Positions 6,995 through 31,777 of a stretch of 64,000 bases of DNA are shown here, in pieces. Below the pieces are notes generated by a model. The model ran no database searches. It had not been told where the DNA came from and worked only from the letters and a program-made list of their open reading frames with translations. Position 1 is the first letter of the stretch; the number at the start of each line of letters is the position of its first letter. Both the position numbers and the translations under genes were made by a program. Source of the DNA: an uncultured Chryseobacterium sp. (GTDB lineage Bacteria; Bacteroidota; Bacteroidia; UBA10329); assembly GCA_964457245.1 (NCBI GenBank), contig CAYWET010000003.1:77006-141005 (forward strand), given 5' to 3'.

Positions 6995-7185
6995 GTAGTT
7001 GTATTCAAATTATGGATGCAAAGGTAGGGATATTGGAAGGGGCGGAGTTAACGGGTGATGAAGTTATGAAGTAGGTATCAGTGAGTAACTAGCAAGAAAA
7101 TCAGAATACGTCCGTAAATAGGTTACTAACTTGCATCCAAGTTTTAAACCGCAAAGGGACTAAACCAAATCTAATTCAACGATTG

Positions 7186-8409
7186 ATGGAGATTTCGCTA
7201 AAAGAAGAAAGGAAACAATCAGTTGCACATCAGCTTACTCCCAAAAAATCGATACCCCATATCATTAAGTACATGGGGTCAAAACGAAGCCTAATTGATT
7301 TTCTAGCAGAGTCTTTCAACGAAATTTATGATGGAGAGCCAATCTGTGACCTGTTTGCTGGAACCGCAGTTGTTGGGGGAGCGTTTGGCGGTGGAGCCCA
7401 GATCTATTCCAATGACATACAAGAGTATTCAGCTGTACTAGCAAAAACATACCTTGGAGATTATGACTGGTCTATCTATGAAAACGTTCTTGAGAGCGTC
7501 ATAGAAATAGCTCAATCTCACGTTAGTCAAGTTCGCAGACTATACCCTGATCTCGTATTCGATTACACGGTAGATTTAGACTTCAATTCCTTTAACGCGT
7601 TAGAACAAGAACAGCAAGAACTCATCTATTTTGATTTCAATGACCTAGAGCATCACCTATTCATTAAGAATTACTCTGGAACATATTGGTCATTTGACCA
7701 GTGTCTTTGGATTGATGCTATTCGAACCGCTGCTAATAGCTACTCTGATACTCCCGTTTACAATGTAATTCTATCAAGCCTCATGTTTGCCATGGCGTAC
7801 AATGCCCAAAGTACTGGGCATTATGCCCAGTATAGAGATGCATATGATGAGGTTTCAATGAAGGATATAATTACCCATCGTAACAAGGAAATTGTCCCGT
7901 ATTTCAGACGAAAGATGGAAGAGCTGATGGCGTTTACGGAATCAAATAAATTGAACCATGTTTATTCATCCATAGACTACCGGGAATGTTTAGACCAAAT
8001 TCCTGAAGGAACTCTGGTCTATGCAGATCCTCCTTACGTATTCGTTCACTATTCAAGATTCTATCATGCTTTGGAAACTTTAGTATTGTATGACTACCCT
8101 GAGGTTAAGTACAAAGGGAGATATCGAACCGACCGTCACCAATCACCTTTTTGCAAAAGAACCGAGGTAGTGGGAGCTTTTGAAGATTTGTTTGAAAAGG
8201 TGGCTTCCAAAAATTCGAAACTTGTTTTAAGCTATTGTAATACGGGAATGATTACTTTGAATAACATTCTGGACATTGCTGCTGACAAATTGAGTGATGA
8301 GTATCGAGTATATACCAAAGAGATGGATTACCTGCACAGCACAATGGGTCGATTGAAAGATAAATCAAGAGATGTGAAAGAATATTTGGTTATTGCAGTA
8401 CCTGAGTAA
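7186..8409 (+). CDS. D12-class (Dam-like, alpha-group) N6-adenine DNA methyltransferase
   Basis: Motifs found: KYMGSKRSL (motif X-like), DLFAGTAVVGG (FxGxG, SAM binding), NDIQEY, and the catalytic ADPPY (DPPY codons at 8026-8037). About 200 aa between motif I and DPPY is a putative target-recognition region. ATG 7186 follows the track's TTG at 7183. Confidence 0.8.
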   Translation: MEISLKEERKQSVAHQLTPKKSIPHIIKYMGSKRSLIDFLAESFNEIYDGEPICDLFAGTAVVGGAFGGGAQIYSNDIQEYSAVLAKTYLGDYDWSIYENVLESVIEIAQSHVSQVRRLYPDLVFDYTVDLDFNSFNALEQEQQELIYFDFNDLEHHLFIKNYSGTYWSFDQCLWIDAIRTAANSYSDTPVYNVILSSLMFAMAYNAQSTGHYAQYRDAYDEVSMKDIITHRNKEIVPYFRRKMEELMAFTESNKLNHVYSSIDYRECLDQIPEGTLVYADPPYVFVHYSRFYHALETLVLYDYPEVKYKGRYRTDRHQSPFCKRTEVVGAFEDLFEKVASKNSKLVLSYCNTGMITLNNILDIAADKLSDEYRVYTKEMDYLHSTMGRLKDKSRDVKEYLVIAVPE

Positions 8410-8411
8410 GC

Positions 8412-10229
8412 ATGTCTGCCAAAAACGATTTTTCAAAAGTTAGGGGTTCTTGGACCAAGTTTGATTCTGTAAAAGTTTTAGCTGTGGTGTACAGCATAGA
8501 GACCCTGGAGAGGTTCAAAGCAAAACAGATTCAAATTGATGAACCAATACTTCGTTCATTTTTAGGCATTAAGTCGCTTAAAGATCCATTACCAAAATAT
8601 TGGTTGGAGATTCAAGACTACCCTCAGGAAAAAAGGCTTTTCGCACTTTTTGCCAGCTTATTCCGAAATGGCAAGGTGATACGGCTGTTTGCGGAAAAAT
8701 ATTCCAAAGGAGAAATGAAGGGTGTAATGAAGCTTGGCTCACCCCATTCAAAGCAAGAGACCAACCTCAGGAGTGCCTTAATAGAATCAGGTGCTGCAGC
8801 GTTGATTTATAGAAAGTCTGATTCGGTACCTTATGACTTCTCCCCCATATTTCAAAATCCGAAAGTGGGACGATTGTTTAAAGAGGTCTTGAAAGAAAGA
8901 GTATCGCGCATCGCGAAAAACCCTACTGAAGGTGAGTTTTATGCGGTTTGTGAGGAAAATCAATTCCACAAGGCACTTAGTCTGACAAAAACTCAGTTCC
9001 GAAACTGGCTTGAGGGTGAAACTGATATAAATTACAGTGAAACTTCAGCAAATTATCTCGATGAGATTCGAATTTCTGGGTTCTACTCGATTGGCGAAAT
9101 TATTCTCTCAGGGTTGAAGGATACCAAAGAGATATACCTACTTGGGGAAAATGGAGATGGCAAATCCTTAGTCTTGATGGCAATTTATCTTGCTTTCAAC
9201 CGACATTTCGTTTCGGAACAAACCGATCAAGAAAGTACTGGGAAAGCGGTTGATATTATAAGGGCGAACAAAGGTGTCTTCTTAGAAGCTGTCGACAGTA
9301 ATGGCAAAACCTATGGTGCTAAGAATACTGGATATCTGAGCAACCTTTTTGGATATGGAACTCACAGAGGCCGCTATTCAACCGATAATGCTGAGGAGTA
9401 TGGTTTCATGTCTCTGTTCAGTAGCGAAGAGGAACTTACAAATCCTAACTCATGGCTACGAAACCAACGGCATCTAGAATTGGAAAAAGCACTGGGCCAA
9501 AATAACATGGTTGGTGAAAACAAATCACTGCCAAAATCTTTCCCGACTGAACCCTTGTTAGCCATGTTTCATGATTTGCTGGAAAGGAATATTGAAATAA
9601 CATTTAAAGGTCCAGACGTCATTTTTAATGAAAAGGGTGCTCAACTAACTTTTGATCAATTATCTGAGGGCTACAAGAGTATATTAATCTTCGTTTCCGA
9701 CCTTCTGAAACGGCTTCAGGAAAATCAGCCAACCGTTAATGATGTTAAGAAGTTTAAGGGAATCGTAATTGTAGATGAAATTGATCTTCATCTGCACCCT
9801 AAATGGCAGAAAAACATCGTTAAAAAACTTAGGAAGCTGTTGCCGGAAGTCCAGTTTATTCTTTCCACCCACAGCCCAACTATGATTCAGGGCGCATCAA
9901 ATGACGCTGTAATTTATCGCATTTACCGAAACACTGTGGACGGAAAAACGAAAGCTTCCGAACCCTATTACCGAAATGAGCTAAACTACATGATGGTAAA
10001 CACACTACTTACCTCCTCTTTGTTTGGTTTGGACAATTCCCGATTGGATAATGAGAATCAAAATTCAGATACAAGCGAAACCTATTTGCTATACCGAATC
10101 AACGAGATTATTTCTGAAAAACTGGAGCAGGAGAAAAGGGATGGCAAGGAGTTTATCAGTGACGATACGATAGATGAATTAATCAAGAAGGCCATTGACC
10201 AAGAACTTGGAAAAAATGATCAAAATTGA
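8412..10229 (+). CDS. ABC-type (AAA_21/PtuA-like) ATPase with an unassigned ~240-aa N-terminal domain
   Basis: Walker A GENGDGKS (9144-9167), ABC signature LSEGY (9660-9674), Walker B IVIVDEIDLHLHP (from 9762) and H-loop LSTHSP. The start ATG is 2 nt after the methyltransferase stop (TAA gc ATG). Confidence 0.75.
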   Translation: MSAKNDFSKVRGSWTKFDSVKVLAVVYSIETLERFKAKQIQIDEPILRSFLGIKSLKDPLPKYWLEIQDYPQEKRLFALFASLFRNGKVIRLFAEKYSKGEMKGVMKLGSPHSKQETNLRSALIESGAAALIYRKSDSVPYDFSPIFQNPKVGRLFKEVLKERVSRIAKNPTEGEFYAVCEENQFHKALSLTKTQFRNWLEGETDINYSETSANYLDEIRISGFYSIGEIILSGLKDTKEIYLLGENGDGKSLVLMAIYLAFNRHFVSEQTDQESTGKAVDIIRANKGVFLEAVDSNGKTYGAKNTGYLSNLFGYGTHRGRYSTDNAEEYGFMSLFSSEEELTNPNSWLRNQRHLELEKALGQNNMVGENKSLPKSFPTEPLLAMFHDLLERNIEITFKGPDVIFNEKGAQLTFDQLSEGYKSILIFVSDLLKRLQENQPTVNDVKKFKGIVIVDEIDLHLHPKWQKNIVKKLRKLLPEVQFILSTHSPTMIQGASNDAVIYRIYRNTVDGKTKASEPYYRNELNYMMVNTLLTSSLFGLDNSRLDNENQNSDTSETYLLYRINEIISEKLEQEKRDGKEFISDDTIDELIKKAIDQELGKNDQN

Positions 10230-11031
10230 TAAGGATTTAAATGGTGTTCCTCCCTCTCTTCAACTTCCAGAACGTCAGTACTTCTCTGGAACAATTCCGA
10301 GACCGCCCAAAACAACTCATCAAAGACGAAGAGAGTTAATTGACCAAGGTAAATACATTGATACCGCCCAATACAACTCCCGTTACAAACAGTCTGACAC
10401 CAAAGAGGCCTTAAAGCTTCTGTACCATAATAAATGTGCTTACTGTGAACAGGTGGTGGAACAAACACATGTTGAACACTATCGACCAAAGAGCACATAC
10501 TATTGGCTCGCTTACTCATGGGACAATCTTCTATTATCGTGCCCTACTTGTAATAAGCATAAGGATGTTAATTTTCAACTGGACGGCCCAGAGGCAAGTT
10601 TGTTGAATGCAAAGGAAGCGTTGTCGAATATTCATGCCTTGAGGACAAGCTATGATGACACCGAGCTACCTCGGTTAGTAAACCCTGAGGTTACAGATGT
10701 AAGTGGACAAATCGTTTTTAATCAATCAGGCAATGTAGATTCTGCTGACAGCAGACTCGCCTACACAATTGAGGTATGCAAGATAGATAGAGCTACTCTC
10801 AATGATCAACGAAAAAAACTACTTGAAGTGTTTGCCCGCGATGTAAGGTCAGCTCTACTTGAAGCTTCGGACACCAACAAACAAGAACTTCTAGTTGGTT
10901 CAATAATCACAAAATTTATTCGAGATTCTTGTGACAACGAAATGGCCTTTCTTGCGTTTAGACGTTTCGCTATAGCAAGCAACTGGCTTAAAGAAATAAT
11001 CATTGAAGTCAAACGGATGCCATCCAATTAA
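10216..11031 (+). CDS. HNH endonuclease (TIGR02646 / PtuB-like)
   Basis: CAYCEQVVEQTHVEHYRPKSTYYWLAYSWDNLLLSCPTCNKHK (10435-10563) gives CxxC...HxEH...N...CxxC zinc-finger HNH architecture. ATG 10216 overlaps the end of the ATPase gene by 14 nt. The track's TTG at 10195 is an alternative start. Confidence 0.8.
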   Translation: MIKIDKDLNGVPPSLQLPERQYFSGTIPRPPKTTHQRRRELIDQGKYIDTAQYNSRYKQSDTKEALKLLYHNKCAYCEQVVEQTHVEHYRPKSTYYWLAYSWDNLLLSCPTCNKHKDVNFQLDGPEASLLNAKEALSNIHALRTSYDDTELPRLVNPEVTDVSGQIVFNQSGNVDSADSRLAYTIEVCKIDRATLNDQRKKLLEVFARDVRSALLEASDTNKQELLVGSIITKFIRDSCDNEMAFLAFRRFAIASNWLKEIIIEVKRMPSN

Positions 11032-11049
11032 GTTGTGACTAACTAAGCC

Positions 11050-11415
11050 TCACCCACCCCTCTCAATCCGCCTAAGCACCTCCTCAATCTCCTGAGGAGA
11101 TTTACCCACAAGCAATTTCGCCACCTCTGGCACGGTCGGCTTTTTCAGTACACGCAGGTGGTGCTTTGGGTCCCCCTTCCAAGTAAAAAGGTCATTCGGC
11201 AGGCAGTTGAACGTTTCGCACAATCGTGTCATCATACTCAGGCGTATCTCCTTGGGCTCGCCATTCAAGAGTCCACGGGCCTCACTGGCCGTATAGCCAT
11301 GGTTCATTAGAAAAGAACGCCCAGAACGGATGCCGTTCAGCGCTAACAAGCGGTGTATGTCTACATGTATCGTATCATTTGAATTCATGCTTATCACAAC
11401 GTTCTTTAGGTTCAA
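11050..11415 (-). CDS. XRE-family helix-turn-helix transcriptional regulator
   Basis: ...LLALNGIRSGRSFLMNHGYTASEARGLLNGEPKEIRLSMMTRLCETFNCLPNDLFTW is a typical Cro/C1-type HTH with the Bacteroidota xxFNCxPNDLF tail. The true start may be the internal MNSNDT. Confidence 0.7.
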   Translation of the reverse strand: MNLKNVVISMNSNDTIHVDIHRLLALNGIRSGRSFLMNHGYTASEARGLLNGEPKEIRLSMMTRLCETFNCLPNDLFTWKGDPKHHLRVLKKPTVPEVAKLLVGKSPQEIEEVLRRIERGG

Positions 11416-11485
11416 ATTAGTATCAGCTAATGCATGTTTTTTGTTAAAAACAAGGGCAAATTGGTTGTTCCTTCACTAAAAAGTG

Positions 11486-11674
11486 ACGTTCAACCGCAAA
11501 CATTGGCTTTGTAACCGCCAACAAAAGTTTTGCAATAGCAGATCAGGAGTTTGCAACAGCAAACCCCAACTTTTCCTTCACCAACATCAGTTTTGCAACC
11601 GCAACATGGCAACTTTCCTCCGCCAATTCCGCGTTTGCAATAGCAAACCACCCACGTTCAACAACAGATCGGTG
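11486..11674. repeat. About nine tandem 21-bp units carrying the palindrome GTTTGC-N4-GCAAAC (putative operator array)
   Basis: 16-mers start at 11486, 11507, 11528, 11549, 11591 and 11633, giving spacings of 21, 21, 21, 42 and 42. Perfect copies are GTTTGCAACAGCAAAC (11549-11564) and GTTTGCAATAGCAAAC (11633-11648). Degenerate units fill the in-register positions 11570, 11612 and 11654. Confidence 0.8.
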
Positions 11675-11815
11675 GTTATTCAGAACACAGAATATCACAG
11701 CCATAACAATGCCGTGGGTTTCCAACCCGTTTTAGATGCAAATGGCGCAATGCTTCACTTTAGATAAAGCAGCCCGCCCAAAAGCAAAAAGACAAACACT
11801 TAAAACCTGGAAATC

Positions 11816-12766
11816 ATGACAGACGAACAATCAAATCAACTCGATATGCTTCTTGTCCTTAGAGACTTCTATACAGACAATCAAGCAGCCATCGATGCCA
11901 TTCCTGTGCTTGCATTGAACTTCCCAACAATCGCCACAAACATTGCCGTCATCAACAGCAATGTGGCAGGGCAGTCCGCTAATATTAAAGGGGTAACGCA
12001 AAACAAGACCAACCTCCGCACAAACCTCAACGAACTCACATTCAACATTCTTGGAATTGCCCGTGCATGGGCCGTTGCAGAAGACAATGCAGCGCTGGCT
12101 GAAGAGTTCAGGGTTACAGAATCTGGCCTCGAGAAAATAAAAGACGACACCATGGCCGCCTACTGTACGCATCGCTACACATTGGTCAACGATAACTTGG
12201 CTTCTATGGCAGATTACGGAATTGTATTGGCCACAATGACCACATGGCAAGATGCAATTACCGATTACGGGAATGCCGTGGCTAGTCCCCGTGAAGCCAT
12301 TAACACAAGAAGCACGCACACAGATAATCTAAAGACCGTCTTTGATGATACCATGAAACTCCTGAAAGAGAACATCGACCCCGTAATGCTCAACTTCAAA
12401 ACCTCCGACCCCGCTCTGTACAGTGGTTATGAAAAAGCAAGAATCATTATCGACCGAACAGGGCAAGGTGGTGGCACCCCTACCCCGCCAGAAGAGGCCA
12501 AGTTATCGGGGCAAATTACAGACAGTAGTACGCTAACGCCATTGTTTGAGGTTTCCGTTACCATGACGCCTTCTTCATCAAGCGAGCCACCGATTACTGT
12601 ACTTACCGATGCCAATGGCAATTACTTGATCGAGAATATACCGCCTGGTGACTTTGATTTCTTGGCCGAAAAGGTGGGTTACGAACCCGTAAGCAACTCA
12701 GGCACTATAACAGCAGGTGAGAGTGCTGTCTATAATATTGAGATGGTGCCTGTTGCGGAGCCTTGA
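11816..12766 (+). CDS. Hypothetical protein: helical N-terminal domain, Gly/Pro/Thr linker and a CarboxypepD_reg-like beta-sandwich
   Basis: 316-aa ORF with no signal peptide. The C-terminus ITVLTDANGNYLIENIPPGDFDFLAEKVGYEPVSNSGTITAGESAVYNIEMVP matches the carboxypeptidase-regulatory-like fold pattern. Confidence 0.6.
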   Translation: MTDEQSNQLDMLLVLRDFYTDNQAAIDAIPVLALNFPTIATNIAVINSNVAGQSANIKGVTQNKTNLRTNLNELTFNILGIARAWAVAEDNAALAEEFRVTESGLEKIKDDTMAAYCTHRYTLVNDNLASMADYGIVLATMTTWQDAITDYGNAVASPREAINTRSTHTDNLKTVFDDTMKLLKENIDPVMLNFKTSDPALYSGYEKARIIIDRTGQGGGTPTPPEEAKLSGQITDSSTLTPLFEVSVTMTPSSSSEPPITVLTDANGNYLIENIPPGDFDFLAEKVGYEPVSNSGTITAGESAVYNIEMVPVAEP

Positions 12767-12832
12767 TGGTCAGGGTTCACGTAAGATTATAACTTAGTGC
12801 AAACCATTAGTCTTGAAACCAACCCCAATCAC

Positions 12833-13330
12833 ATGAATTTGCACGACTACCCGCATGTTTGGCCCAAAATGATTCCGCAGTTGGAATCTGCATTATTACG
12901 CCATGAAGAAGCGCTTACCAAAATGGCCAACTTCAAAAAGAAGTACACCTCAGTAAAGAATAAAGCAAAACGGATAGAAAAGTATTTGGTAAACGCGGAC
13001 CAGGAGACAAAAAGATACCTTGAGCTAAGCAGTTTGAACTACCTCCGATACGCGGAGAACAAATTCACTCTTGTAAACAAAAAACTGAAGCGCTTTAGAG
13101 AACACGAGGTAAAATCCTGTGATCGATCTCTTAGACTACTGAAAGGCCCAACCTTAGACCCGAACATTACTCAATGGCACATCAAAAACGTTTCGGCTCA
13201 CCTACACCATGTAAATAGCCTACTCCACGAAGTTTCCGATATGGTCCGAATTGCCAAGGGGCATCTGACCAAAGTAGACGACATGAAGAAGTATTTGGCT
13301 CAGGTACGAAGGCGAAGTAGGCTATCCTAA
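12833..13330 (+). CDS. Hypothetical Lys/Arg-rich helical protein
   Basis: The ORF runs 12797-13330 with a GTG start; the first ATG is at 12833 (MNLHDYPHVWPK...). No recognisable motifs. Confidence 0.4.
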   Translation: MNLHDYPHVWPKMIPQLESALLRHEEALTKMANFKKKYTSVKNKAKRIEKYLVNADQETKRYLELSSLNYLRYAENKFTLVNKKLKRFREHEVKSCDRSLRLLKGPTLDPNITQWHIKNVSAHLHHVNSLLHEVSDMVRIAKGHLTKVDDMKKYLAQVRRRSRLS

Positions 13331-27850: not shown

Positions 27851-30800
27851 CTACCTCTCAGTCTTCAGGCCAATTCCCAATTGCTCCTCAATAAGCTGAA
27901 GCCGTGCTTCATTGGTTTCTTTTTCGGTTTTGAGTTCAGTTTTTAGAGACTGAATTTCTTCCTCCTGCTCCTTATTAACCTGAATAAGCCATGCGGTGAG
28001 TTTGCTGTAATCGACCGACTTATATCCGTTCTCATCGGTACTCACGCATTGCGGTAGAATCTCTTCAATTTCCTGCGCAACCACACCAACTTGCTGTGTG
28101 CTGTCAACGCCTTCTTTCCAGTTGTAGAAGTAGCCGTTTACTTGCTGCAGTTTGCTCAAAGCATCAGGAATGATCTCAAAATCCTTCTTCCATCTAAGGT
28201 CGCTGAAGGTGTTCCAAGCATTCGCGCGAGCCACGGTGCCGTCTCCGCTTTCGCCTACTTGTAGTTTGTAACTGGGGCTGATTGTTCCGATGCCCACATT
28301 GCCCGATACTTCTTGGATGGTCATGGCCGTACCTATCCCATCTTCGGTGAACTGAAGGTCTTTCGCGTTCATCTCAATTTTCCACGTGTTGGCATCTGTA
28401 TCTTCCAGTATCAGAACTGGACGTGGATTGGCTATCCTGATGCCTTGATAGTCACCTCCGATCGTGCTATAAACCGTAAGTCGGCTCGTTGGGCTATCCG
28501 TACCGATACCCACATTTCCGGCCGTATCGATTACCATGGCCTCTGTGCCGCCAACGTCAAAACGGATGAAATCCTCGTCCGAACTTTCCTCTACTTGAAT
28601 TTTGGTGTCTCCATCAGCATCAGCCACTATGGGTAGCGTAATATCGACCGAATTGCCATCTTCAATACTCAGTTCAGTGCCTGAAAGGCTCAGTTGCTGA
28701 TCATCAGTATCTACGGCTGCATCTGCCCAGCTGATGGTTCCGCTACCGTCTGTGCTCAGTACTTGACCTGAGCTACCATCTGAATAGGGAAATTGATAGT
28801 CGTTTATTGAGACGCCACTGGAGGAAACGCGGAACCCCTTCTCCTGCGCAGCAACATAGGTTCTGAAACCGTAATCGCGTAAGTCATAATTTCCTCCTCT
28901 ACCATCTTCATAAACGCCAGAATTATCAAACCGCCATCTGTAACCCGAACTCAGCACTATTGTGTACTGTTGGCCTGCCTCTACCTGTACGCTGTCGGTT
29001 GGAAAGCTGTGCCACCCTGAACTTGGTGCTGAAACTATGGATGAGATATACAGTAGCTCTCCATCGGTTCCCTCTCCCTCGTAAAAGGAAATCGTCATAT
29101 CATCGCCACTTCCTGAAAACCTGAGATCTATTTGTGTGAGGTATCCCGAAACGCCTGCTGTTAACGACTGCCATTCAGCAACATTATCAAATGAATTACC
29201 ATTGGCGGTCTCAACGGATTGGTCTATGGCCGAACTATCTATACCGCTGGTCTTCACATGAAAAGTCGTTATCGGTGACAACCCTATTCCGAGTCCATCA
29301 CTATTGAGTACCATTTTCTCATTACCTGCAATGTCAAAACGAATGATGTCCTCATCGGTGCTTTCCTCTACCAGTATCTTGGTATCGCCATCGGCATCGG
29401 AGATGATGGGCATGGTGTCAGCTGATGCGGCCTGCCAAGTTGCGTTTCCATCAGCATCTGAGGTAAGCACATAGCCATCTGCTTGGTTGCCATCTTCGTA
29501 CTTGATGCTGCCGTCAATATGCAGGGTTGCATCTGGCGTGCTGGTGCCAAGGCCTGTGTTTCCATTCTTGAGAATGACCATGGCATCTGATGTTGCTGTT
29601 GAACCCGTTCCATTGCCGATAGTAAAAAGACGGTCGTCCTCATCCCAATCATTAACATTATCTGGAGTGTAACTGGTATTGTACCGTCCTATGGTAATCT
29701 CATATCCGGATGGGGCTGAGACGTAATTACCAATTCCTATTGCTCCTGGTCCGCTGGTAGTTGAATAGGTGCCCAAGGCCATTGAATAGTCGCCAGTGGC
29801 TTCGGAATAGGAGCCTATGGCAGTAGAATTGGCCCCGCTAGCGGTAGAATAAAAACCGAAAGCCATAGAGTAAGTGTTGCTGGAGGTGGCTACAGCACCA
29901 AGTGCCACAGACCCATTACCGCTTGCGGTTGAACCAGTTCCGATGACCGCGGATTTAAGGCCACTTGCAGTAGTTCCAAAACCCATCGCGGTTGCGTAGT
30001 CTCCAGTTGCTCGAGTATTGTATCCACTTGCAAATGAACTCAGCCCAACGTTATCGGAATTCCAATGCGTATTGGTAACTGTCCCTGCTCGAAAGGCACC
30101 TTTTCCTTTATCAAAAAAGAAGCGACTATCATGATCTGCGTTCCCATCATCATCCAACTGCGTAGATCCGAACACGAAGTCGTCTGAGGTCTCATCTACG
30201 GCACTGCCCGGCAATACCACTCCGCCAAGGGTGTCGAAGACCATGGTTGATGAAGTTGCCGAAATGGTATCGTTGCTGATGCTGATGTTGTCTCCAGCAA
30301 TGTAGCTTCCCGTGGCACCTGTTGGCCCCTGAGCACCTGTTGGCCCGGTGGCACCGTCTGTACCTGTCGGACCTATCGCGCCATCTGCACCTGTTGGACC
30401 TGTAGGGCCAGTCGCTCCAAAAAGACCGGAACCTTCTTGTTGCCAACTGGCGTTTCCATTGGCATCAGAAGTAAGCACGTATCCGTCAGCTTGGTTGCCA
30501 TCAACCAATTTCATGCTTCCTACCACATGCAGTTTAGCTTCTGGTGCGCTGCTGCCGATACCTACATTGGCATCATTGCCCAACACCACCGAGTTACTTT
30601 GTGTAACGGTAGCGTCTGCCCCAATTGCCGTGGCGTTGTTGATGGTTGCACTGCCATCTGCCCCATAACCGATGTAAGTGTTCTTCTGGCCCGTGGTATT
30701 GCCATTACCCGATAAGTAGCCGATGGCCGTGTTATATGGCCCCGTAGTGTTAGACCCTGCCTTAAATCCGATGAACGAGTTGGCATCTGAACTCACATTG

Positions 30801-31777
30801 GCCAGACCCGCTTCCGAACCGATGGCCAGATTGTAACGTCCTGTTGTGTTGTTGAAACCTGAAAGACGACCGATGAACGTGTTGAAATTACCATCGGTGT
30901 TGTTCTGACCCGCCTTGTAACCGATAACAATATTGTTGGAGGCCGTGGTACTAAGCATTCCAGCTGAAGTACCCAGATAGATGTTGGTCGAACCAGTTGT
31001 ATTCTCTCTTCCTGCCTTGTTTCCGATAAACAGGTTGTTCGAGCCCGTGGTATTCTCCTTACCCGATTTGTTGCCGATGAACGTGTTATCTACACCTGTA
31101 TTGGAATCATGATCTGTTGCGGTTCCAACATAGGTTGAAGTGTTATCCACCGCCAGTAGCATTTCCGAATTGCTCAGAATACGTGAATCTACGGCCAGAT
31201 CAAGGTCTCCTTCGGTAGTGAAACGCGCTACTTCGGTGTCGTTTGTTCTGATGGCTAGGTCCTGTCCATCAGTAGTTCCAATGAAGTTGGTGGCATCATC
31301 CGTGCCGCTGTTACCGTTTATGGTCCAATCGTTGGGATCGGAGCGGGTGCCTCCATCCACGTCAGCTGTCCCGCTCCTTGCAGCGTAGAGTGCGTAGGGC
31401 ACACTCAGTAGTTGGGAGGTTCCCACCTCCTCAAACTGGCCACTATTGTCCGCATCCAACCAAACACGCAGGTAGTGGGATGCAGAGCCCCAATCAATAT
31501 TCTCGAAATCGCCTTCCAATACTTCCCCAGCACCAATATGCAGGTTAAAAAGTCCGAGCTTGTTGGTCAGCACAACATGTTCTTCCGCGTACACTGGACG
31601 GTCGAGGTCGGTATCGCTTATGATGGCCATTCGCAAGGAAACTTCTGTATCTGTCAATGGCTTACCATCTGCATCGCGTGCAACGGCCTGATAGTTGAAC
31701 TTCTGAGGTGCTTGCTGGGCAACAGCATAATTAAAAGAACTGAGAATTAGAATGGATAGAAATAAGAGCTTTTTCAT
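27851..31777 (-). CDS. Giant secreted fibre protein with a C-terminal phage-tail-fibre-type intramolecular chaperone (peptidase S74-like) domain
   Basis: Signal peptide MKKLLFLSILILSSFNYAVAQ. YadA/Hep_Hag-like repeats (NxxxGxxAGxxNTTG), a collagen-like run (GATGPTGPTGADGAIGPTG...), two DADGDTKIxVEESxDEDxIRFD motifs, and the C-terminus SDLRWKKDFEIIPDALSKLQQVNGYFYNWKEG...VGVVAQEIEEILP followed by a coiled coil. Confidence 0.85.
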   Translation of the reverse strand: MKKLLFLSILILSSFNYAVAQQAPQKFNYQAVARDADGKPLTDTEVSLRMAIISDTDLDRPVYAEEHVVLTNKLGLFNLHIGAGEVLEGDFENIDWGSASHYLRVWLDADNSGQFEEVGTSQLLSVPYALYAARSGTADVDGGTRSDPNDWTINGNSGTDDATNFIGTTDGQDLAIRTNDTEVARFTTEGDLDLAVDSRILSNSEMLLAVDNTSTYVGTATDHDSNTGVDNTFIGNKSGKENTTGSNNLFIGNKAGRENTTGSTNIYLGTSAGMLSTTASNNIVIGYKAGQNNTDGNFNTFIGRLSGFNNTTGRYNLAIGSEAGLANVSSDANSFIGFKAGSNTTGPYNTAIGYLSGNGNTTGQKNTYIGYGADGSATINNATAIGADATVTQSNSVVLGNDANVGIGSSAPEAKLHVVGSMKLVDGNQADGYVLTSDANGNASWQQEGSGLFGATGPTGPTGADGAIGPTGTDGATGPTGAQGPTGATGSYIAGDNISISNDTISATSSTMVFDTLGGVVLPGSAVDETSDDFVFGSTQLDDDGNADHDSRFFFDKGKGAFRAGTVTNTHWNSDNVGLSSFASGYNTRATGDYATAMGFGTTASGLKSAVIGTGSTASGNGSVALGAVATSSNTYSMAFGFYSTASGANSTAIGSYSEATGDYSMALGTYSTTSGPGAIGIGNYVSAPSGYEITIGRYNTSYTPDNVNDWDEDDRLFTIGNGTGSTATSDAMVILKNGNTGLGTSTPDATLHIDGSIKYEDGNQADGYVLTSDADGNATWQAASADTMPIISDADGDTKILVEESTDEDIIRFDIAGNEKMVLNSDGLGIGLSPITTFHVKTSGIDSSAIDQSVETANGNSFDNVAEWQSLTAGVSGYLTQIDLRFSGSGDDMTISFYEGEGTDGELLYISSIVSAPSSGWHSFPTDSVQVEAGQQYTIVLSSGYRWRFDNSGVYEDGRGGNYDLRDYGFRTYVAAQEKGFRVSSSGVSINDYQFPYSDGSSGQVLSTDGSGTISWADAAVDTDDQQLSLSGTELSIEDGNSVDITLPIVADADGDTKIQVEESSDEDFIRFDVGGTEAMVIDTAGNVGIGTDSPTSRLTVYSTIGGDYQGIRIANPRPVLILEDTDANTWKIEMNAKDLQFTEDGIGTAMTIQEVSGNVGIGTISPSYKLQVGESGDGTVARANAWNTFSDLRWKKDFEIIPDALSKLQQVNGYFYNWKEGVDSTQQVGVVAQEIEEILPQCVSTDENGYKSVDYSKLTAWLIQVNKEQEEEIQSLKTELKTEKETNEARLQLIEEQLGIGLKTER

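Follow-up and report, generated by a model that had tools for sequence, protein, structure and literature searches.

The window analysed in this work is a stretch of 64,000 nucleotides from the genome of an uncultured Chryseobacterium sp. (GenBank assembly GCA_964457245.1, contig CAYWET010000003.1, positions 77,006 to 141,005). Within it, an array of ten head-to-tail units of 21 base pairs (bp), located at 11465..11674 and without an assigned strand, separates two divergently oriented genes. On the one side lies a minus-strand gene of the XRE family (11050..11388), coding for a small helix-turn-helix (HTH) protein of 112 amino acids (aa), and on the other a plus-strand gene (11816..12766) for a 316-aa protein of a family named here Fam1. 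The array, its linkage to the XRE family and its possible function are examined below.

The 21-bp array and its units

A preliminary description of the region, made from the letters of the window, reported an element that recurs in strict 21-bp register. When the sequence was laid out in rows of 21 bp, all of the reported copies (11486, 11507, 11528, 11549, 11591 and 11633) were found, and the degenerate units placed in the same register at 11570, 11612 and 11654 are all present. An extra in-register unit at 11465 agrees with the array consensus in 13 of its 21 positions, which brings the total to ten. The plus-strand consensus of the array (11465..11674) is TTTTTCAACCGCAAAC followed by a variable spacer of 5 bp.

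Three units are strong. The one at 11549..11564 (GTTTGCAACAGCAAAC) matches the motif in 16 out of 16 positions and has 6/6 arm pairs, the one at 11591..11606 (TTTTGCAACCGCAACA) has 5/6, and the one at 11633..11648 (GTTTGCAATAGCAAAC) again has perfect arms. The units had been described as GTTTGC-N4-GCAAAC palindromes. This applies to 11549 and 11633, where all six arm pairs are formed, but the other units form only 2-5 of the six. Similarly, the 42-bp repeat that had been seen from 11549 onward is real insofar as strong and weak units alternate, but the super-period is modest.

The self-match of the sequence over 11486-11674 is 0.476, 0.510, 0.524 and 0.514 at lags 21, 42, 63 and 84, respectively, against a background of 0.27 (standard deviation 0.04) in the window. 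The value at lag 42 was equalled by none of 5000 shuffles at any lag from 5 to 63. Tandem Repeats Finder reported no repeat at the array, since a likeness of only about 50-75% among the units is too low for it, and the periodicity had to be measured instead by this autocorrelation.

The window contains another lag-21 peak, at 29741-29960, which is as strong as that of the array, yet it represents a coding repeat of seven residues (YadA-head-like). It is part of a fibre-protein gene of 1308 aa (27851-31777, minus strand), is unrelated to the array and provides an internal control.

Since 21 bp are also seven codons, the array might code for a small protein with a heptad repeat. An open reading frame (ORF) of 94 codons (11483-11767) spans the array, an ORF of a same-genus genome (G015) lies in the same frame relative to the repeat, and the true coding repeat mentioned above produces the same lag-21 signal. 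This explanation was rejected and its probability is minimal, as there is no 3-base periodicity among the units, either here or in 75 arrays of the class. In addition, both strands of the array have open frames of 53-94 codons, which leaves little weight to any one of them, the G015 ORF stops at a different place (after 73 aa) and Pfam shows nothing for the 94-codon ORF.

Copies of the exact palindrome do not form a genome-wide repeat: there are 8 sites in 4.03 Mb, two of which are within the array. The remaining six stand singly, and their spacers are mostly GC-rich (CCGNGG in five of them). When the genome was searched with the exact palindrome and with relaxed patterns, neither a regulon nor a dispersed family was found.

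The XRE family and its upstream arrays

The XRE gene has two possible starts, the ATG at 11388 and a TTG at 11415. The latter had been chosen in the preliminary description, but the ATG is more likely because it corresponds to the MI(R/Q)L position at which the orthologues begin, and this makes the intergenic gap 427 bp long. Residues 21-81 of the protein match HTH_26 of Pfam (PF13443), with a score of 29.5 bits (cut-off 22; E 9e-7). The protein consists of an N-terminal HTH of the Cro/C1 type and a conserved C-terminal helical extension (LL.GKSPQEIEE.LRRIE), of which residues L93 and G95 are nearly invariant.

In the AlphaFold2 (AF2) model of the protein (pLDDT 82.6), the helix-turn-helix domain leads into three short helices at the C-terminus, and the five-helix fold typical of lambda-repressor-like domains is present. 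In the Foldseek comparison, residues ~1-69 matched the XRE-type domains of SaPI2 Stl, VanUg, CylR2 and C.AhdI with a query-normalised TM of 0.49 and a root-mean-square deviation of 2.4-2.6. Taken over SaPI2 Stl, VanUg, CylR2 and a putative DNA-binding protein of Bacteroides fragilis (3bs3), the alignments cover 64-70 residues with a deviation of 2.3-2.9 and a probability of 0.97-1.0, but E-values of only 0.013-0.3. A sequence search of the PDB with the XRE protein gave no HTH match at E<=1.

In a library of 1.84 billion proteins, clustering at 50% identity gives about 427 clusters of the family, mostly of 105-125 aa, and two-domain fusions of 214-242 aa form a set in the same library. No homologue was found in 50,697 phage records, and 72,556 plasmids gave only a weak unrelated HTH match. 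Two giant proteins among the matches of the family's hidden Markov model (P0046 and P0052) are spurious, as they match a low-complexity repeat.

The XRE domain is often duplicated in tandem in one frame, the length of which is then 221-263 aa; a single frame of 330 aa may hold three domains. Such loci are L018 (G014:C102), L020/L027 (G016:C132), L024/L035 (G014:C139), L021/L030 (G023:C5) and, in the genome under study (G000), L006/L008 (G000:C2:16113-16799). Each of them has a single array, placed upstream of the first domain.

The array had been linked at first to the adjacent XRE gene, and this linkage extends well beyond the locus. In detail, the four genes of the XRE subfamily in this genome are each directly preceded by a stretch of 21-bp periodicity, with a different unit at each; one of these paralogous arrays is located at C9:61082-61501. 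At the level of the small GTDB order to which the genome belongs, an array is found at 30 of 31 homologous XRE loci (15 genomes). These arrays, of 7-15 units, stop 5-195 bp short of the start codon or, in a fusion, of the first domain. A profile search of 401 genomes of the class detected the XRE family in 26 genomes from 11 genera, and the distant loci that were examined, from about eight other families of the class, carry an array in 16/16 cases, 200-370 bp upstream. Altogether, intact homologues with an array upstream are present at 46 of 47 loci from about 10 families of the class. The sole exception is a truncated copy of the XRE gene of another locus.

The five orthologous intergenic regions, namely those of this genome, of G015 and of three metagenome contigs (whose Fam1 proteins are 66-77% identical), align in register with no indels inside the array. 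Nevertheless, the core of the unit changes among them. It reads TTTGCAAynGCAAAC in this genome, TTTTCAAynnCCAAC in G015, and GGCATGCCnCCCCnAAC or GGCATG(CC/AA)nCCCCnAAC in the metagenome orthologues. The putative recognition helix of the XRE protein shifts in parallel with the core, from YTASEARG / FTPSEARG to YT(P/S/A)DEVRG, so that helices of the ASEARG type go with TTTGCAA-type arrays and those of the PDEVRG type with GGCATGCC-type arrays.

The same relation is seen at a larger scale. Over 32 single-domain loci, the similarity of the units is correlated with the identity of the XRE proteins (Mantel r 0.55, p 5e-4), being 0.70 above 60% protein identity and falling to 0.24 below 25%. Two XRE proteins with identical helix residues (DGEARN) have units that are alike at 11 of 15 core positions. 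Such a joint divergence of unit and protein is predicted if the protein and its site have evolved together.

These comparisons also bear on the possibility that the array is a neutral minisatellite, produced by slippage or unequal crossing-over and devoid of function. Its units are degenerate, and their number differs by whole units among orthologues, the aligned stretch of G015 being longer by 21 bp. However, position, register and unit count are retained where the flanking protein is only 66-81% identical, the linkage to XRE genes holds across the class at 46/47 loci, and the conservation takes the form of a core plus a spacer. A neutral origin is thus highly improbable.

In the 75 arrays of the class in which the layout of the unit was followed, conservation is concentrated in clusters of positions (lag-1 autocorrelation of information 0.13 vs -0.05 for permuted columns), and the power of conservation reaches a z of 6.8 at period 21 and 3.6 at period 10.5, compared with -0.8 at period 3. 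A core plus spacer with a 10.5-bp component is the pattern expected if one or two successive major grooves are read on one face of the helix.

On the contrary, palindromy is not a general property of the units. Its mean z over the 32 single-domain loci is 0.44, with 4 of them at p<0.05, and the array at 11465-11674 (p=0.043) is among the few significant cases. For the two-domain fusions the mean z is -0.15. When palindromic units at single-domain loci were tested against asymmetric units at fusions, the trend had the expected sign and was not significant. The 6-N4-6 inverted repeat, emphasised initially, proves to be a local feature only; the trait of the family is a head-to-tail direct repeat with a core and a variable spacer.

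Fam1, the flanking regions and the genes around

The array is separated from both genes by non-repeat DNA. The gap next to the XRE gene (11389..11464) is the presumed site of its promoter and contains TTTTTTGTTAAAAA at 11437-11450, which is shared with the G015 orthologue. The promoter and the leader of the 316-aa gene are presumed to lie in the region between the array and Fam1 (11675..11815, plus strand). Alignment of this region is possible for all five orthologues, and it includes conserved stretches such as GTGGTTATTCAG, as well as CATTAAA.ACTGGAAATC just 5' of the ATG.

A scan for sigma-70-type promoters and terminators gave nothing above shuffled sequences, with no terminator after the array. 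The Bacteroidetes -7 box TAnnTTTG is present neither in 11389..11464 nor in 11675..11815. Moreover, this box is found upstream of none of the 21 XRE genes of the order (positions -150 to -1 of the start; 37 XRE-family loci, L004-L065, were scanned), compared with about 20% of the genes with long upstream gaps in this genome. The XRE genes of the order may use a different type of promoter.

With no recognisable promoter between the array and either gene, the array could be part of a transcript. It would then act as RNA, carried either by an extended 5' leader of one of the two genes (XRE or the 316-aa gene) or by a separate small RNA, and an RNA-binding protein would be bound or titrated by its 21-nt repeats. 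At 25 of 27 loci of the order, the XRE-sense strand has a positive G-skew. Furthermore, a contig of 159 nucleotides, probably from an RNA run of a related strain, overlaps the array of the distant homologous locus L063 (G253:C1, 1979-2136) at a depth of 2.4, while in the same comparison another contig covers the XRE gene at a depth of 4.2; this comparison consists of one or two short low-depth contigs for two distant loci, and no RNA run was found to contain the locus under study. On the other hand, a metatranscriptome contig of another relative covers the XRE gene and not the array, and other families of the class do not show the strand bias. Rfam gave 0 matches at E<=5 over 10800-12400, and the folding z-scores (-2.7 and -1.8) stem only from two short palindromes. 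An exact period of two helical turns is natural for duplex DNA and not for RNA. A role as RNA is accordingly considered improbable.

Purine or G-skew was also tried as a universal mark of the strand and was rejected, since it holds within this order only.

The repeats of type III toxin-antitoxin systems (ToxI) are nearly identical, and a terminator and a toxin gene of the ToxN/AbiQ type come after them. The array differs from them in that its units are about 50-75% alike and are not followed by a terminator. No domain of the ToxN/AbiQ type was detected in the downstream protein by Pfam, and PADLOC gave no match.

Fam1 (11816..12766) combines a helical bundle (residues 1-209) with a C-terminal sandwich of the transthyretin-like / CarboxypepD_reg type (Pfam PF13620, E 2.7e-12; AF2 pLDDT 84.6). 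It has no evident signal peptide. The fold search against the PDB returned matches that cover the C-terminal sandwich only, and PHROGs, NCBIfam and PADLOC gave nothing informative.

Fam1 is closely associated with the XRE family. Among its homologues of at least 41% identity, 15 out of 16 are divergent neighbours of an XRE-family gene, with a gap of 367-675 bp. In the 24 genomes of the order, both families occur together in 13, XRE alone in 2, a weak Fam1 match alone in 1 and neither in 8 (one-sided Fisher about 5e-4, hand-calculated). Downstream of Fam1 there is a coiled-coil-like ORF of 177 aa (12797..13330, plus strand), which is kept in G015 but missing from the orthologous loci that are more distant, and which therefore probably does not belong to the core of the module. 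The module is also present in the complete genomes G253 and G347.

Beyond the XRE gene lies a block of defence genes (7183-11031), consisting of a type II adenine methyltransferase of the D12 class (7183-8409), the Septu gene PtuA (8412-10229) and PtuB/HNH (10195-11031). At the respective place, G015 has a fragment of a type I restriction specificity subunit, and the metagenome contigs have restriction-modification genes of the HpaII or EcoRII type. As the DNA on this side varies among the orthologous loci, the module sits at the fixed edge of a defence-gene hotspot. The purF gene is located on the far side both here and in one metagenome contig. No phage genes were found near the array.

The wider class of arrays and a proposed function

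Arrays of this kind are not restricted to XRE genes. The genome-wide scan revealed about 36 non-coding regions with a strict 21-bp period and a median of 11 units (interquartile range 10-12), each with its own private unit. Examples are found in G000 at C66:10298-10654, C22:7452-7787, C62:2937-3167, C11:86485-86778, C75:1999-2418, C1:25610-25924, C10:30069-30299, C19:57586-57816 and C72:9552-9845. Super-repeats of 63 bp occur in the arrays of C72 and C24:27007+, and one of 42 bp in that of C10.

Three gene families other than XRE carry such arrays. All seven Fam1 genes of this genome have an array on their 5' side. Fam2 (proteins of ~210 aa with a helical N-domain and fn3) has nine paralogues, with a clear upstream array in six and a weaker periodicity of 21/63 bp in the other three; no regulator gene is adjacent to any of them. 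They are located in G000 at C17:55184-55840, C60:3588-4247, C74:1712-2335, C63:6545-7210, C1:67002-67634, C37:23744-24364, C24:26386-27006, C57:8083-8706 and C52:19208-19831.

Fam3 is an orphan family of 82-101 aa ending in W.IERV, which has no match in Pfam, PHROG or NCBIfam. All of its five genes have an array 4-131 bp upstream; they lie in G000 at C48:25481-25744(+), C5:127423-127728(+), C11:86824-87072(+), C7:23023-23322(+) and C29:37261-37506(-). Fam1 is found across the array from an XRE gene at two loci and from a Fam3 gene at two others. This alternation suggests Fam3 as a functional analogue of XRE, and on this arrangement of genes Fam3 is a candidate second family of array readers.

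In a few cases the unit is shared. The arrays C5:127136-127366, C4:113678-113908 and C11:73779-74009 have nearly the same unit (TCATAAGTCTGCTCAATTCTC), either because the Fam3 protein at C5:127423 governs them as a small regulon or because of a recent duplication. The C4 and C11 copies of this array also share their flanks, including an ORF of 112-128 aa. Likewise, the array of the two-domain XRE gene on C2 resembles that at C19:57586. Arrays that share a unit could be targets in trans.

Regarding the locus under study, the array is proposed as a candidate docking platform, cooperative and confined to one face of the DNA, for the adjacent XRE protein, which would control its own gene and the divergent Fam1. 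Judged from the sequence comparisons, this proposal has about an even chance of being right. Cooperative or filament-like binding had been suggested from the outset, and a multi-site complex of this type is the most economical reading of the locus.

A period of 21 bp corresponds to two turns of the helix, and all ten positions therefore face the same side of the DNA. Each unit, made up of about 15 bp of conserved core and about 5 bp of variable spacer, would constitute one binding position. The XRE protein, presumably as a dimer (replaced in relatives by the two-domain fusion), would bind unit by unit. Cooperative polymerisation, probably mediated by the conserved C-terminal helices, would then coat about 210 bp. 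The occupancy of the platform would set the transcription of the XRE gene, whose start is 77 bp from the array, and of the 316-aa gene, 142 bp away. The large number of sites would make the response switch-like, and its sign could be either repression or activation. The common tandem fusions of two domains fit a joint action of two or more HTH domains.

Several observations weigh against this proposal. No promoter can be placed beside or within the array by the sigma-70-type and TAnnTTTG scans, and the one RNA contig over the L063 array, mentioned above, is of low depth. The mostly non-palindromic units are unusual for a symmetric HTH dimer. The co-divergence of units and proteins could equally come from shared descent combined with homogenisation among the units. 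In addition, arrays of the same period and length are located upstream of three unrelated families (Fam1, the fn3 proteins of Fam2, and Fam3), and about 19 arrays have no recurrent neighbour or adjacent HTH gene, some of them lying between convergent genes. The XRE protein cannot therefore be the universal reader of the class; most of the other arrays must have a different reader, and a reader common to them could also read this one.

If so, the array would be a generic phase-locked scaffold. A shared factor would recognise all 21-bp arrays by period and length, or a coherent curvature would act by itself, and the XRE protein would not be the binder. The about 36 arrays of the genome are indeed alike in period and unit count whatever the neighbouring gene; they are carried by four unrelated families and many have no regulator beside them. 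The absence of the canonical -7 box from the 21 XRE genes of the order, against the 20% baseline, is in line with this view. A wedge model also predicts that the arrays are more curved than random DNA, with a ratio of end-to-end to contour length of 0.84 vs 0.94 (p 4e-6).

However, perfect repeats of random 21-mers are more curved than the arrays in the same model (0.77), and the predicted curvature looks therefore like a by-product of the period. Each array keeps a private core, with 13-34 bits across its units, while orthologues change theirs, and a reader blind to sequence needs none. The core-plus-spacer layout with its 10.5-bp component resembles the recognition sites of proteins, and two families of small proteins are always adjacent to an array (XRE 4/4, Fam3 5/5). 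A generic scaffold is regarded as rather unlikely, yet it is the main alternative to docking and a serious one.

Returning to docking by a dedicated reader, the idea may be extended to the whole set, in a more tentative way. Phase-locked arrays would then form a general class of cis-elements, with ~36 members per genome, in which period and length (~10-12 units) are fixed and the unit serves as a private address. Small array readers, for which the XRE subfamily with its fusions and Fam3 are the candidates, would each assemble into a filament of defined length, both on the array of their own gene and on the few others whose units match it. The arrays would thus be addressable switches for cytoplasmic proteins made of a helical bundle and an immunoglobulin (Ig)-like domain. 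This extension is possible, on what the sequences suggest, and is held with reserve.

Among known systems, plasmid and phage iterons (P1, F, R6K, RK2, pSC101) and ParR-bound parC centromeres consist of tandem direct repeats of 17-22 bp at a phase of about two helical turns. They are bound cooperatively by an adjacently encoded protein that regulates its own synthesis, in complexes of defined size. The array resembles iterons in being a tandem repeat of 17-22 bp in helical phase, and it resembles parC and tubC in its position upstream of the gene for a small DNA-binding protein. It could, in principle, be the iteron set or the partition centromere of an integrated mobile element, which would suit the location of the module at the edge of a variable defence island.

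An iteron-type function, raised in the preliminary description, is nonetheless unlikely, and the broader idea of a replication or partition site of a mobile element has very little probability. The neighbours of the array are XRE, Fam1, Septu, the methyltransferase and purF, with no initiator or Rep gene, and no ParA, ParM or TubZ gene is adjacent here or in the orthologous loci. The about 36 arrays per chromosome, that is, dozens with private sequences, are foreign to both systems. The XRE family has no phage homologue and, in plasmids, only the weak unrelated HTH match, and the module is conserved while the neighbouring island varies.

The operators of LytTR regulators (of the AgrA, ComE and AlgR type) are imperfect direct repeats of 9 bp, separated by 12-13 bp with a period of 21-22 bp, and usually number two or three. 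The present array differs in having ten repeats and an adjacent regulator of the HTH_26 type instead of LytTR, although a LytTR protein acting in trans would be conceivable.

The closest precedent for the proposed mechanism, by analogy, is the C repressor of phage P2. It is an XRE-type dimer that binds cooperatively to non-palindromic direct repeats of 8 bp with centres 22 bp apart (PMC2995052). One dimer occupies each repeat and only one HTH reads the conserved core, while the repeats of heteroimmune relatives differ (PMC2995052). The likeness consists in a small HTH of the XRE type and in non-palindromic direct repeats two turns apart, which is exactly 21 bp in the present case. On the other hand, P2 has two repeats over the -10 box of a phage early promoter, whereas here there are ten chromosomal units with no recognisable promoter. 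Also, no sequence relationship was detected (no HTH match at E<=1 in the PDB search, no phage homologue), and the locus lacks the context of phage immunity.

BldC of Streptomyces (PMC5859096) and the excisionase-type proteins Apl (PMC7498355) and RdfS (PMC11963761) are reported to be small DNA-binding proteins forming head-to-tail cooperative multimers on variable numbers of direct repeats. They differ in their folds, which are MerR-like or winged helix, and where a spacing is given it is shorter, as in the sites of Apl, which are one helical turn apart. In sum, the array belongs to none of the P2 C, iteron, partition or BldC-type families, as it departs from each in at least one defining feature (homology or phage context, a Rep or partition gene, and fold, respectively).

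In the open-access literature on repeats of Bacteroidetes, no description of such an element was found. If the XRE protein coats its array, the result would be a hitherto undescribed regulatory design of the chromosome, in which ten or more phased operators serve one regulator, with a specificity private to each paralogue. The arrangement is conserved across a bacterial class and recurs dozens of times per genome. Such arrays and their proteins would represent a natural set of orthogonal protein-DNA address pairs, as well as a tractable model for the cooperative assembly of filaments on DNA. They would also give a first handle on the widespread families without annotated function (helical bundle with CarboxypepD_reg or FN3) that carry these arrays, and the XRE subfamily together with Fam3 would be the first concrete candidates for the readers of 21-bp arrays.

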